Assembly: GCA_000004695.1 (NCBI GenBank)
Contig: CM000153.2
Location: 1,600,001-1,664,000, forward strand
Origin: Dictyostelium discoideum
Lineage: Eukaryota
Length of the DNA stretch: 64,000 nucleotides
Reading direction: 5' to 3'
Part shown: positions 40,056-56,680 of the stretch, piece by piece
Layout: each line of letters starts with the position of its first letter
Numbering within the stretch: position 1 is the first letter of the stretch
Program-made: the position numbers and the translations under genes
The notes under the pieces: generated by a model
What the model was told of the DNA's origin: nothing
Seen by the model: the letters and a program-made list of their open reading frames with translations, nothing else
The model's database searches: none

Positions 40056-41798
40056 TTAATAAATGATTCTATTTGGATCTTTTGAAGAGAAAATATGATA
40101 AATTTTTGAAGAGAGAACTGGACCTAAATTTTTAGTACCTCTATTTTGGTCGATTTTAACATCTCTTAAAAGGTTTTCTTTTTCATACTCTGAAGAGGAA
40201 TCACCATAGTAAGAGAATAAACTAGTGACAGTTGGATACTTTGCAACGATACCTCTCGCGATATTCGAAGAGATACCAGTGATCTGACATAACTGATTAC
40301 TCCAAGTATCACATAGAGAAGTTTGTTTCCTCTTCTTTATTGAATCTGCACAGAAGCCTTCAAACAATTGATCCTCATTACGTAGTGGTAATAAAGCAAC
40401 AGTTTGAAAAGACTTGAAAAGAAAATTAACAATATCATTTCTATTCTCAATGGTTCTAATGGTAATACTAAAGTCCATCTGAACTTGCACTAATATCTTT
40501 TCAATTGTAACCTTGGTCGGTGGTAAATTCATTGTCAATGCATTTATATTCTTTTCCAATAACCCTTTTTGAATGGTTTGCTTTGAAATTGATTTTGAAA
40601 TTTGATGTAAATAAGAATCCAATGATTCTACCAACAATGTGAAATTACATGTAGGATTATCTCTTTTCACTTTACTAATCTTTTCAATTAATTCATTATT
40701 TTGAATTAATTGAGTTAACATTTTTGCTGAATATTTTAAAATTACAAATTTTTCATATTGTTCATTTGAATTTATATTATCAATATTATTATTATTATTA
40801 TCAATATTATTATTATTATTATCAATATTATTATTATTATTATTGTTGTTATTATTATTATTATTATCATTTTCTTCATCATTTTGATTATTATTATTAA
40901 ATCTGCGTATAAATCTAATTGAATATGGAATTGTAGAATTAGTAAATTCAATATTTGGAGTTTTTAATTCTAATTGAGCTTTTATATCATCAATTCCAAG
41001 TTCATTCTCTAAATTCTTATCAAATATAATGAATGTTTCTTCTAAACATGTTGTTTTTGTTATCTTTTTTGGTTTTGGTGTTTTTTTTTTATTACTACTT
41101 GATGTTGATTTCTGTTTAGATGATGATGATGATGATGACGATGATGATGATGATGATTTAGTTTTACTACTAGTTGTAGTAGATTTCTTTGATGGTTTTA
41201 ATGGTTTAAATTCTTGATCTAATTCAGAATCTGATACTTCATCACCATCATCAATCATTGAATTTGTGTTATTATTGGTATTGTTATTATTATTATAATT
41301 GAAACTATCATGATTATCGTTTGTTGATCTTTTTTTTTTACTATTTCCATCATCTTCGTCACTATTTTTTGATTTTCTTTTTGACGATGATGATGATGAT
41401 GATTTCTTGGTTTTTGTATCATTATCATTTCCACTATCATCCTCATAATCATCTAAATTTACAATACCACTATTATTACCATCATTATCAATTCTTGGTT
41501 TTTTACTAATTATTAAAGATGAATATGATGACCTTTTATTACTATTAATACTATTATTATTATTATTTGTAGAAGTAGTAGTAGTAGTAGTAGTGGTAGT
41601 CTTTTTTGATTTCTTCTTTTCTTCTGATAATTTTTTTTTTTTCTCTTTTTCTGTCATGAATGTTTGTTCAATTGATTCATCTTCATCATCCTCTTCATCA
41701 TCAAGTGAAAAATTGAAACCTGAATTTGAAACTTTTGAACTTGGTTTCTTTTCCTCTTCATCTGATGATATTATATCAATAACATCCCTTTGTGTCAT
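40056..41798 (-). CDS. eme1: EME1/Mms4-family protein, the non-catalytic partner of the Mus81 structure-specific endonuclease. Single exon, 580 aa
   Basis: The C-terminal half is collinear with human EME1. 'TSLCDTWSNQLCQITGISSNIARGIVAKYPTVTSLFSYYGDSSSEYEKENLLRDVKIDQNRGTKNLGPVLSSKIYHIFSS' aligns with '[79 protein letters not shown]'. 'IENRNDIVNFLFKSFQTVALLP' aligns with '[26 protein letters not shown]'. The ERCC4-like core is degenerate ('LLVESLDSY' instead of an ERK catalytic motif), as expected for EME1. The N-terminus is an acidic/Lys/Ser-rich low-complexity region. Confidence 0.7.
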   Translation of the reverse strand: MTQRDVIDIISSDEEEKKPSSKVSNSGFNFSLDDEEDDEDESIEQTFMTEKEKKKKLSEEKKKSKKTTTTTTTTTSTNNNNNSINSNKRSSYSSLIISKKPRIDNDGNNSGIVNLDDYEDDSGNDNDTKTKKSSSSSSSKRKSKNSDEDDGNSKKKRSTNDNHDSFNYNNNNNTNNNTNSMIDDGDEVSDSELDQEFKPLKPSKKSTTTSSKTKSSSSSSSSSSSSSKQKSTSSSNKKKTPKPKKITKTTCLEETFIIFDKNLENELGIDDIKAQLELKTPNIEFTNSTIPYSIRFIRRFNNNNQNDEENDNNNNNNNNNNNNNIDNNNNNIDNNNNNIDNINSNEQYEKFVILKYSAKMLTQLIQNNELIEKISKVKRDNPTCNFTLLVESLDSYLHQISKSISKQTIQKGLLEKNINALTMNLPPTKVTIEKILVQVQMDFSITIRTIENRNDIVNFLFKSFQTVALLPLRNEDQLFEGFCADSIKKRKQTSLCDTWSNQLCQITGISSNIARGIVAKYPTVTSLFSYYGDSSSEYEKENLLRDVKIDQNRGTKNLGPVLSSKIYHIFSSKDPNRIIY

Positions 41799-42234
41799 TG
41801 TTTATTTATTTATTTATTTATTTATTTTTCTAAAAAAGATAATTATTGTATTTGAAAATTTACAAAAAAAAAAAAAAAAAAAAAAAAAAAAATAAATTCT
41901 GAAAAAAAAAAAAAAAAATAAATAAATTAAAAATAAATCGCACAAAAAAAAAAAAAAAAAAAATAAAATACAATAAAAACAATTTATTAGGGATATTTAT
42001 TTTAAAAAATGTATAAATAATTATTTTTTTTTTATAAAAATGGTTTAGAAAAAAAAAAAAAATATAAAAGAATACAAAAAATAAAATTAATTATATAAAA
42101 TAAAAAAAAAATAATTTTTTTATAAATTTTTAAACAATTCTTTTTTTTTTTTATTATTTAATTATAATTAAATTTGAAATGTCATTTTATTGGAAATATT
42201 CTAAGGTATTTTTTTAGGAAAGCTTAGGGAATGA

Positions 42235-53716: not shown

Positions 53717-56680
53717 ATGACAAATCCAAATCAATTCATAATAGACGCATTAGAATTAATAATCAAAAATAGGAGTAGTTATCATTTTCAAAGGAATTTA
53801 AAAGTAGCAATTGATAGTATTAAATTATACCCAATGCCACTGAAAACAAAAGATGATATTAAACTTTTAAGAGGGTGTGGTCCGACAATTGTTGATATCA
53901 TTTTTCAAATAATTCAAAGTAATAAAAATAATAATAATAATAATAATAATAACAATAACAATAACAATAATAATAATATTACCAATAATAACAATAGTGA
54001 TGGTGGTATTCCAAAAGAACTTGAAAATTGTAAATTTCATTTATTATTATTATTTATTATTATTATTTTTTTTCTTATTAAATAATAATATTAATAATTA
54101 TAAATATTTTAAATATGTCTATAGATATAGCACCAGAATCAGTAAAAGAATTTTTAATATCAATTGATCAAAGTTTTGTTCAATATTTACCAAAACTTGA
54201 AGAAGCAGGTTATAATAAATTAAATTTCTTAAAGAATTTAAATGAAAAGGCTATGGATAAATTATCAATACCATTAGGTCACCAAACACCAATATTAGAA
54301 AATGCGAAAATTTTAAAATGTATTATTATTATTTATAAACCTAAATTTCAATTTATAATTCCATTTAAAACAAATACTAACTAACCTAATTCTATATTAT
54401 TATTATTAAAATTATATAAAAGTATACTATGATTATACAAAACTAAATAATAATAGTAATAATATTATTAATAATTATAGTTTAGATGGTAATATGATAA
54501 CTTTAATTGGTAAACCATATATTGATATTGACGATTTAAAAAAGAAATGTTCAGAAGATGTTTTTTTAAAAGCATTAAGTTCATTATTTAATCATAAGAT
54601 TAAGACGATACATGTTGAACATAATGAAATAACAGCAATCACTGAAAGTCATTCAATTCCTAATACAACATATAAAATTAGATTTGAAATTTCACCTGAT
54701 GGTACAATAGTTAGAGATCATTGCGAATGTAGATATCTAAATAGTACAAGATGGTGTAAACATAAAGTATCAGTATTTTTAATATTTAATGAAAATACTG
54801 GTGAAAGAGGTAAAAGACTATATTGTCAATCAACTTCACCAACATCACCAACATCACCAACTTCACCAACATCACCAACATCACCAACCCCACCAAAGCC
54901 ATCAAGACCAGTAACGAAATTATCACCAATTACAAGCTTAACATCTAAAAAATCCCCAAATAATAATAATAATAAAAAAGAATATACACCAGCACATAGA
55001 TCAGGAGCATGGGCAATTTTACTTGCATTATATGATAATGAAATATCAAATGGTAATGATAATGATAGAGGTAAAAGATACCTTTTAAAAGAAGAAATAT
55101 TAAGTAATGGTAATAAGTATCTTTCATCTGGTAGAATGGATACAGGTGGACATTGGCTTTCGAATAAAACATTAATTGATCATAATTTAATTAGTAAATC
55201 TGGTTCACCACTTCAATTTATATTAACAAAAACAGGTTATGAATTAGCAAGAAAATTGAAATCATTTGAAGATAGTTCCACTGATAATAAAAATAAAGAT
55301 GATTGTGATAATAATAACATTGATAATGATAATGGTAGTAATAGTAGTAAAGATGAAGGTAGTGATGAAAGTTGTGATAATGATAATCAAATAACTATCA
55401 CTACAATTGATAAAAGAAATCCCAATTGGAAAACACAATTAAAAAATAAAACCAATAATATTAATAATAATAATAATAATAATAATACAAATATTGTTAA
55501 AAATAATAATAATAACAATAATAATAATAATAATAATAATAATAGTAATAATAAAAATAATAAACGTCGTGATAGTGATAATAATGATAATTTTAGTAAT
55601 GGTAGTGAAGAACGATTATTTTTAGAAAGGGAATTATTTAATGAAAATTGGAGTGATTCTGATGAAGAGTTAACTCAATTTATGGTTGATAATACAGTGT
55701 TTCCAAATTCAAAGGTTAAAGAATTATTATATAATGAAAGGGAGGTAATAATTGATAATGTTTTATTAATTGTAGATAATAGAGAAGTAATGGATAAAGA
55801 TCAATCAGATTTATTGGATAAACTTAGAAGTTCAAATATTCAACTTGAAATTAGAAAATTACCAATTGGTGATTTCATTTTCATTGCAAAATGTAGATAT
55901 AATAATAATAATAATAATAATAATAACAATGATAATGATAATGATGATAATGGTAATAATAATAATAATAATAATAATAATGATATTGTTATAAATAGAG
56001 AACCATTTGAATTAATGTATGATATAATAATTGAAAGAAAGAAATTAGCAGATTTAGTATCATCTAGAAAGGATGGTAGATATAGAGAACAAAAACAAAG
56101 AATAAAAACATTGAAAAAGTTTGGATTGACAAATGCAATCTATTTGATTGAAGGTGACAATTCAAATGGTGCAATTCATACAGATATTTATGAAGACTCA
56201 ATAATGGAGACATTGATAGAGGATGAATTCATAGTTCAATTAACTGATGGATTGGATTTAACAAAAGAGTATCTTTTGAATCTTTATGATCATTTCAAGA
56301 AATCAAAGTATCGGTCACTTTCGACATTAAGATTCGCAGATTATGAACAAATTCAACAAGTATCATGTTCAATGAAATTAAAAGATTTATTCGCTCTACA
56401 ATTACTTCAAATCGATGGTGTTACACCTCCAAAAGCAAAAGCAATCATTAATAAATACCCAACACCAAGACATTTGGTTGAAGCTTATAATAATTTAATT
56501 AATGAAATTGAAACAAGTGATGAGGAAACTTTAAATCAATCAAAAAATTCTCAAGATAAACTATTGGAAAATTTAACTTATTCTCAAAGATTTAATGGTA
56601 AAAAATTAAAAATTGGTCATGACATTTCAAAATTAATTTCAATTCTTTATAATGATGAAAATCAATATCAATTTGATTGA
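53717..56680 (+). CDS. mus81: MUS81 structure-specific endonuclease catalytic subunit (ERCC4/XPF-family nuclease, N-terminal HhH, winged helix). Three exons: 53717..54029, 54125..54319, 54486..56680, about 964 aa
   Basis: Exon 1 reads 'MTNPNQFIIDALELIIKNRSSYHFQRNLKVAIDSIKLYPMPLKTKDDIKLLRGCGPTIVDIIFQ'. Human MUS81 has 'NPLFVRWLTEW...[35 protein letters not shown]'. Exon 3 has the winged helix 'YTPAHRSGAWAILLALYDN' (human 'YWPARHSGARVILLVLYRE'). It has 'LPIGDFIFIAK' (human 'LHVGDFVWVAQ'). It has the catalytic ERK signature 'YDIIIERKKLADLVSSRKDGRYREQKQRI' (human '[29 protein letters not shown]'). It has the C-terminal HhH 'LQLLQIDGVTPPKAKAIINKYPTPRHLVEAY'. Donors are GTAAAT (54030) and GTATTA (54320); both 195-nt exon 2 and the exon 1 to 3 junction keep phase 1. 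Confidence 0.8.

Follow-up and report, generated by a model that had tools for sequence, protein, structure and literature searches.

Does it mean anything when the genes for the two subunits of one nuclease lie within 12 kb of each other on a eukaryotic chromosome? This question is raised by a stretch of 64,000 nucleotides of Dictyostelium discoideum DNA (GenBank assembly GCA_000004695.1, contig CM000153.2, positions 1,600,001 to 1,664,000 of the forward strand), which was analysed as a whole and is called the window below; all positions are counted from its first letter. A preliminary description of this DNA, made from the letters alone, had proposed an EME1-like gene on the minus strand at 40056-41798 and a MUS81 gene on the plus strand at 53717-56680, about 12 kb apart, and had read their proximity as a sign of ancient linkage or of co-regulation in a chromatin domain. 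The two gene assignments and the spacing were confirmed, with the start codons 11,918 bp apart in divergent orientation; ancient linkage or co-regulation was not supported by the sequence comparisons reported here. The linkage itself is real and its conservation is shallow, and the two genes have no common promoter and no detectable common regulatory motif. We put the probability at roughly 0.85 that these two ordinary, separately transcribed housekeeping genes came to lie 12 kb apart by an accident of gene order that is specific to the D. discoideum group.

By analogy with the human and zebrafish complexes, Mus81 as the catalytic and Eme1 as the non-catalytic subunit would form a structure-specific endonuclease of the XPF family, pairing via their nuclease and nuclease-like domains and via C-terminal helix-hairpin-helix (HhH2) domains. 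Mus81 would supply the single metal-binding active site, GD...ERKxxxD, with which the enzyme would be expected to cut 3' flaps, stalled forks and nicked Holliday junctions.

Identification of the EME1 gene

The EME1/Mms4-type gene (40056-41798, minus strand) is a single exon with an ATG start that encodes 580 amino acids, and it was recognised by its open reading frame, Pfam and PDB matches, and a profile search. The N-terminal part of the protein, over about 250 residues, is of low complexity and rich in S, T, N, K, and D. Pfam ERCC4 matched residues 280-461 with 38.0 bits (40416-40961, minus strand), exceeding the curated cut-off, and this nuclease-like domain is split by a poly-N insert at residues ~301-344. 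The C-terminal HhH2 domain (40098-40304, minus strand) was matched by Pfam EME1-MUS81_C with 57.4 bits, also above the curated cut-off, at residues 499-567 and over profile positions 2-74 of 74. Neither the N-terminal HhH nor the winged helix of MUS81 was found in the protein by the Pfam scan.

The nuclease-like domain is predicted to be catalytically dead. In a MAFFT alignment with MUS81, the catalytic GD was replaced by YS (IPYSIRF, 40911-40931) and the catalytic ERK by LKY (VILKYSAKM, 40719-40745), and similar losses were seen in the aligned EME1 orthologues of Heterostelium, Acytostelium, Pelomyxa, and a chytrid. BLASTP of the two window proteins gave a collinear alignment that likewise set VILKYSAKM against IIIERKKLA of MUS81. 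When an AlphaFold model of residues 247-580 was compared with the PDB by Foldseek, human EME1 ranked first (4p0p_B, E = 3.7e-8), followed by chains of MUS81, EME2, XPF, and FANCM-FAAP24.

A HMMER profile search with EME1, in which 1.84 billion representatives were scanned, recovered 2020 relatives of the protein. The top named ones were from Heterostelium album (PPL_03595), Acytostelium subglobosum, Synstelium, Ceratiomyxa, and Balamuthia, and a Pelomyxa "crossover junction endonuclease EME1" and a chytrid "eme1" were also among the best. In the 92 best matches of at least 250 amino acids, Pfam detected EME1-MUS81_C in 90 and ERCC4 in 72, and the MUS81 winged helix or HHH_8 in none; the string ERKxxxD occurred in only 5 of the 148 new matches of the search. 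The preliminary description had recognised a degenerate ERCC4 core and a C-terminal HhH collinear with human EME1, and the Pfam and PDB matches, the alignment and the nearest relatives all bear this out. Judged by profile search, domain content, and alignment, the 580-amino-acid protein is EME1, neither a copy of MUS81 nor another partner of the XPF family.

Both window proteins are of the ERCC4 family with the same C-terminal HhH2, so that the EME1-like gene might in principle be a lineage-specific, degenerate copy of the adjacent MUS81 gene and not an orthologue of EME1/Mms4. The best single PDB match of the EME1-like protein points in this direction as well, being zebrafish Mus81 in its HhH2 domain (E = 3.9e-11), which ranks above human EME1 (residues 427-575, E = 4e-8). 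However, BLASTP between the two window proteins was insignificant (E = 5.4, 25% identity over 227 residues), orthologues that have the same domains and a dead nuclease can clearly be recognised across Amoebozoa and fungi, and the domains specific to MUS81 were missing from all of the 92 nearest relatives scanned. An origin by local duplication is very unlikely because the window proteins are dissimilar, the catalytic residues are lost, the relatives are EME1 proteins, and EME1 is the top Foldseek match. A recent duplication of MUS81 giving rise to EME1 was rejected, since there is no significant similarity between the two proteins.

One of the top relatives, PPL_03595 of Heterostelium album (818 amino acids; GL291003.1, 10001-13287 of the fetched locus), is annotated with a Ras/Roc GTPase domain at its N-terminus, ahead of the EME1 region; this fusion is probably a merger of two neighbouring genes in the gene model and not a real architecture.

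A word-indexed protein search behaved differently from the profile search. With the full-length EME1 protein as the query it returned only 4 matches, the candidate list being swamped by low-complexity words, and with the trimmed EME1 alignment it returned no matches, close orthologues included. A chimeric query of the EME1 core and the N-terminal domains of MUS81 did not recover dictyostelid MUS81, yet a gene of 954 amino acids is called at the MUS81 position in the D. firmibasis assembly; the tool thus misses known cases, and its negatives on Dictyostelium proteins rich in low-complexity tracts are untrustworthy.

The MUS81 gene

The MUS81 gene (53717-56680, plus strand) consists of three exons that are joined in frame across GT..AG introns and encode 900 amino acids. 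Exon 1 (53717-54029, plus strand) encodes the N-terminal HhH (Pfam HHH_8, 35.8 bits) and a poly-N tract, ends at a GTAAAT donor at 54030, and is 67% identical to its counterpart in D. firmibasis. Exon 2 (54125-54319, plus strand) encodes a SAM domain, which is described further below, and is spliced in frame. Exon 3 (54486-56680, plus strand) contains a SWIM-like motif, the winged helix, the ERCC4 nuclease, and the HhH2.

The winged helix (54989-55258, plus strand) was matched by Pfam MUS81-like_WH with 43.8 bits and by the winged helix of human MUS81 in the PDB (2mc3, E = 1.7e-7), and the nuclease (55772-56284, plus strand) by the full ERCC4 profile, positions 1-140, with 72.9 bits. The catalytic residues expected of the active subunit are intact, namely GD at residues 631-632 (55868-55873) and ERKKLAD at residues 686-692 (56033-56053), the latter aligning to IIERKRMDDL of zebrafish Mus81. 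The C-terminal HhH2 (56390-56515, plus strand) was matched with 33.7 bits (EME1-MUS81_C, cut-off 27.4) over profile positions 2-43 of 74; the match is partial because of an acidic insert, beyond which the alignment resumes. A PDB sequence search with the protein retrieved Mus81 chains (E = 3e-18). These Pfam and PDB matches agree with the earlier assignment of this gene to MUS81, with an intact ERK motif, a winged helix, and an N-terminal HhH.

The interval between the two genes

An alternative reading is that the partner genes have been kept together by selection for co-expression or dosage balance, in a chromatin domain or under cell-cycle control by E2F. The presence of E2F and CHD1 genes in the same window is in line with such selected linkage. 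However, three unrelated genes, all on the minus strand, lie between EME1 and MUS81. The first (43184-45262, minus strand) encodes a protein of 692 amino acids of unknown function with only a sub-threshold match to EPL1, and is not part of the nuclease. The second (45755-51739, minus strand) has at least 2 exons and encodes a CHD1-type chromatin remodeller with SNF2-rel_dom (316.9 bits), Helicase_C, Chromo, HTH_CHD1_Hrp3, and CHD1-like_C domains; orthologous called CHD1 genes encode 1885-1965 amino acids. The third (52572-53456, minus strand) encodes an rRNA-processing factor (Pfam rRNA_processing, PF08524, 45.5 bits).

The promoters are separate as well. The upstream exon of the rRNA-processing gene (53283-53456) has a conserved counterpart at the beginning of the gene in D. 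firmibasis, and the start codon of the rRNA-processing gene is separated from the ATG of MUS81 by 260 bp (53457-53716), forming a divergent promoter pair. Given that this conserved first exon has its start at 53456, the divergent promoter of MUS81 is common with the rRNA-processing gene and not with EME1. EME1 has its own upstream intergenic region (41799-43183), which would hold its promoter and is not common to MUS81. In D. firmibasis, MUS81 and the rRNA-processing gene form an equally divergent pair about 380 bp apart (~1854 and 2232 of the fetched locus).

Regulatory motifs gave no sign of joint control, in scans that are crude on AT-rich DNA. The E2F core TTSSCGC was not found near EME1 or MUS81 and occurred only 3 times in the whole window, at 10787, 13037, and 63060. 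The upstream regions of EME1 and MUS81 had 0 common 8-mers with at least 3 G/C bases, as compared with 1-9 between control intergenic regions and the MUS81 upstream region. Common control through E2F sites, which the preliminary description had proposed to look for, was accordingly rejected, since no such sites lie near either gene. With three intervening genes, separate promoters, and no common motifs, co-regulation within a chromatin domain found no backing in this interval.

Upstream of EME1, a pair of 54-nt direct repeats (42247-42300 and 42358-42411) that are 87% identical and 111 nt apart lies in a relatively GC-rich island. Only the first ~40 nt of this island match the locus of a second D. 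discoideum isolate; no match was found in the loci of D. firmibasis or D. dimigraforme, nor in Rfam or among tRNAs. The island may be a small strain-specific insertion.

Gene order in related species

The surroundings of EME1 (±10 kb) were compared in three other Dictyostelium assemblies, namely D. firmibasis, D. dimigraforme, and the second D. discoideum isolate. In D. firmibasis, the order NBR1-ThrE-unk519-EME1-(unk692)-CHD1-rRNAproc-MUS81 is collinear with the window, where unk519 and unk692 denote proteins of unknown function. Its chromosome record CM069766.1 has the N-terminus of MUS81 (residues 2-488) 8.1 kb upstream of EME1 in the same divergent orientation; CHD1 and the rRNA-processing gene separate the two. 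The loci of D. dimigraforme and of the second D. discoideum isolate agree with the order NBR1-ThrE-unk519-EME1-unk692-CHD1(-rRNAproc) for as far as they were fetched. The protein of this isolate (GCA_054859355.1) is 96% identical to the window EME1 in a global alignment, and its CHD1 99.7%. Two further entries lay on contigs of 1 kb and 4 kb, which gave no neighbourhood information.

These assemblies settle whether the proximity could have been produced by a mis-join of this one sequence. The same arrangement in the D. firmibasis chromosome record effectively refutes this explanation, and the independent assemblies of the D. discoideum isolate and D. dimigraforme show the same order to the end of their fetched loci. 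The linkage is therefore not unique to this species and this assembly, as independent assemblies of related species share it.

Conservation among these relatives also counts towards selected linkage: the order is kept in D. firmibasis and is consistent in the other two assemblies as far as their loci reach. However, it is indistinguishable from the collinearity of the whole block, which extends over about 30 kb. Because the entire block is collinear, the retention of EME1 and MUS81 in it says nothing beyond the general synteny of close relatives, and continued collinearity of the neighbourhood as a whole is the only reason why the proximity persists there.

In more distant species the linkage was not seen. 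In Heterostelium album, Acytostelium subglobosum, Balamuthia mandrillaris, and Pelomyxa schiedti, the 10 kb on either side of EME1 contained neither MUS81 nor CHD1, and the EME1 neighbours in these four amoebozoans were entirely different. When window MUS81 and a sawfly MUS81 were searched by tblastn against the four loci, the only matches were to the HhH2 of the EME1 genes themselves. Absence within 10 kb, in unrelated neighbourhoods, argues against selected linkage and against the ancient linkage that had been suggested; only the close Dictyostelium relatives share the order. It also argues against local duplication, as EME1 orthologues occur in these species away from MUS81 (±10 kb).

Two differences within the block were observed among the close relatives. 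The 692-amino-acid gene (43184-45262) is present in the second D. discoideum isolate and D. dimigraforme and absent at that position in D. firmibasis, and D. dimigraforme has an additional Pirin gene downstream of EME1.

Chance and selection

The Dictyostelium genome is about 34 Mb in size. In a genome of this size, the probability that one pre-specified pair of genes lies with its starts within 12 kb is about 7e-4. This low value speaks for selected linkage, and in yeast the genes for subunits of stable complexes are weakly clustered on chromosomes. The pair was, however, not specified beforehand. It was picked post hoc, with ~22 genes in the window and hundreds of known partner pairs in a genome to choose from, and on this basis each genome is expected to show about 0.1-1 coincidence of this kind. 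Together with the three intervening genes, the pairing of MUS81 with an rRNA-processing gene at its promoter, the lack of common sites, and the shallow conservation, this makes selected linkage unlikely in our judgement, and a lineage-specific accident of gene order is preferred.

Several points weigh against this preference for an accident of gene order. Besides the low probability for a pre-specified pair, co-regulation was judged from sequence scans and synteny. The distant species were inspected within ±10 kb of EME1, so that a looser linkage on the same contig is possible in them, and the synteny comparison left out D. purpureum, Cavenderia, and Tieghemostelium. The AlphaFold model of EME1 used for the structural comparison was of modest quality, with a mean predicted local distance difference test (pLDDT) score of 57.8. 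Finally, heterodimer formation and nuclease activity of the two proteins are predicted by homology only.

Comparison with known complexes

The pair resembles human and zebrafish MUS81-EME1 (PDB 2ziu, 4p0p, and 9f98) and yeast Mus81-Mms4, in which a catalytic subunit with GD...ERKxxxD, an N-terminal HhH, a winged helix, and HhH2 is combined with a partner that has a nuclease-like domain minus the catalytic residues and an HhH2. Unlike those proteins, both Dictyostelium proteins have long low-complexity inserts, with a poly-N loop inside each nuclease domain, and Dictyostelium MUS81 has two further elements between its HhH and its winged helix, a SAM domain and a SWIM-like CxCx9CxH motif. XPF-ERCC1 and FANCM-FAAP24, which were among the lower-ranked Foldseek matches, have the same fold and likewise pair an active nuclease or a pseudo-nuclease via HhH2. 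Unlike ERCC1 or FAAP24, the 580-amino-acid protein is placed with EME1 by Pfam EME1-MUS81_C and its nearest homologues, and unlike XPF-ERCC1 and FANCM-FAAP24 it has no helicase domain.

In humans, MUS81 and EME1 are carried by separate chromosomes (11q13 and 17q21), and in yeast the two genes are also unlinked. The Dictyostelium genes, 12 kb apart, differ from both of these pairs in this respect.

The genes themselves are not new, since mus81 and EME1 are already in the literature. In D. discoideum, mus81 (DDB_G0276519) has been disrupted, and the mutant was not sensitive to cisplatin (PMC2730050); the gene is also listed in PMC8529158. An inventory of meiosis genes in Amoebozoa (PMC5381635, Table 2) records that D. 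discoideum, D. purpureum, and P. pallidum all have MUS81 and MMS4/EME1. The chromosomal proximity of the two genes is not mentioned in this cited literature on D. discoideum mus81 and meiosis genes, and literature searches for an identifier of an eme1 gene gave none.

The only new element is therefore the proximity, for which no functional signal was found. It opens no new testable question, because neither regulatory coupling nor deep conservation was found. Naming the "hypothetical" or "ERCC4 domain-containing" protein of 580 amino acids as Eme1 is useful for annotation and for DNA-repair genetics in Dictyostelium, in which mus81 has been studied and eme1 has not.

Additional domains in MUS81

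In MUS81, the N-terminal HhH is separated from the winged helix by an extra module of two parts, the SAM domain of exon 2 and then a beta-rich segment with CECRYLNSTRWCKH, a SWIM-type CxCx9CxH motif (54722-54763, plus strand), at its end. The SAM domain was matched by Pfam SAM_2 with 25.5 bits (cut-off 20.5), and in the PDB by the SAM domain of ARAP2 (E = 0.02). D. firmibasis keeps both parts, the SAM domain (exon 2) with 77% identity and the SWIM-like segment with about 67% identity. The SWIM assignment is weak, as Pfam SWIM gave 14.1 bits (E = 0.035) and did so for the D. firmibasis copy only; a single-sequence AlphaFold model of the SWIM-like region was too poor (pLDDT 50.7) and was not used.

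According to precomputed Pfam annotation, neither the SAM domain nor the SWIM-like module is present in two retrieved sawfly MUS81 proteins, and by this comparison the SAM domain appears unusual for a MUS81. We regard the SAM domain and the SWIM-like motif as a more interesting lead than the proximity, as the module might bear on recruitment or regulation of the nuclease in an organism noted for its resistance to DNA damage.

A bolder proposal can be formulated, in which selection for balanced co-expression keeps MUS81 and EME1 in one neighbourhood in the D. discoideum group and, separately, dictyostelid MUS81 may have gained a SAM and SWIM-type zinc-finger module. If true, this would be a rare eukaryotic linkage of partner genes that acts via a chromatin domain despite three intervening genes, and the module would give the nuclease a new mode of recruitment or oligomerisation. 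We consider this proposal improbable.

Other features of the window

The window is extremely AT-rich, its G+C fraction ranging from 0.11 to 0.37 per kb, and its open reading frames are rich in poly-N, poly-S, and poly-T tracts. The preliminary description had listed further genes of DNA and chromatin metabolism here, of which E2F (E2F_TDP, 80.3 bits; E2F_CC-MB, 61.8 bits) and CHD1 were upheld. The proposed RPA3 gene (7949-8284, plus strand) fell below the threshold, with a Pfam Rep_fac-A_3 match of 15.6 bits (E = 0.021) under the cut-off of 23.5 bits, and stays a candidate, not a call. The case for a wider cluster of DNA and chromatin genes is accordingly weak, and other genes of the window are unrelated, encoding an NBR1-like receptor, a ThrE transporter, a RasGAP, an RRM protein, and FNIP-repeat proteins. 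The NBR1-like gene (29553-32993, plus strand) has PB1 in an upstream exon and N_BRCA1_IG (60.7 bits), and its product is a candidate receptor for selective autophagy. At the right end of the window, Rfam RF01414 identified two Dictyostelium Class I RNA genes above the gathering score, one at 62690-62746 on the minus strand (53.9 bits) and one at 63884-63941 on the plus strand (51.8 bits).

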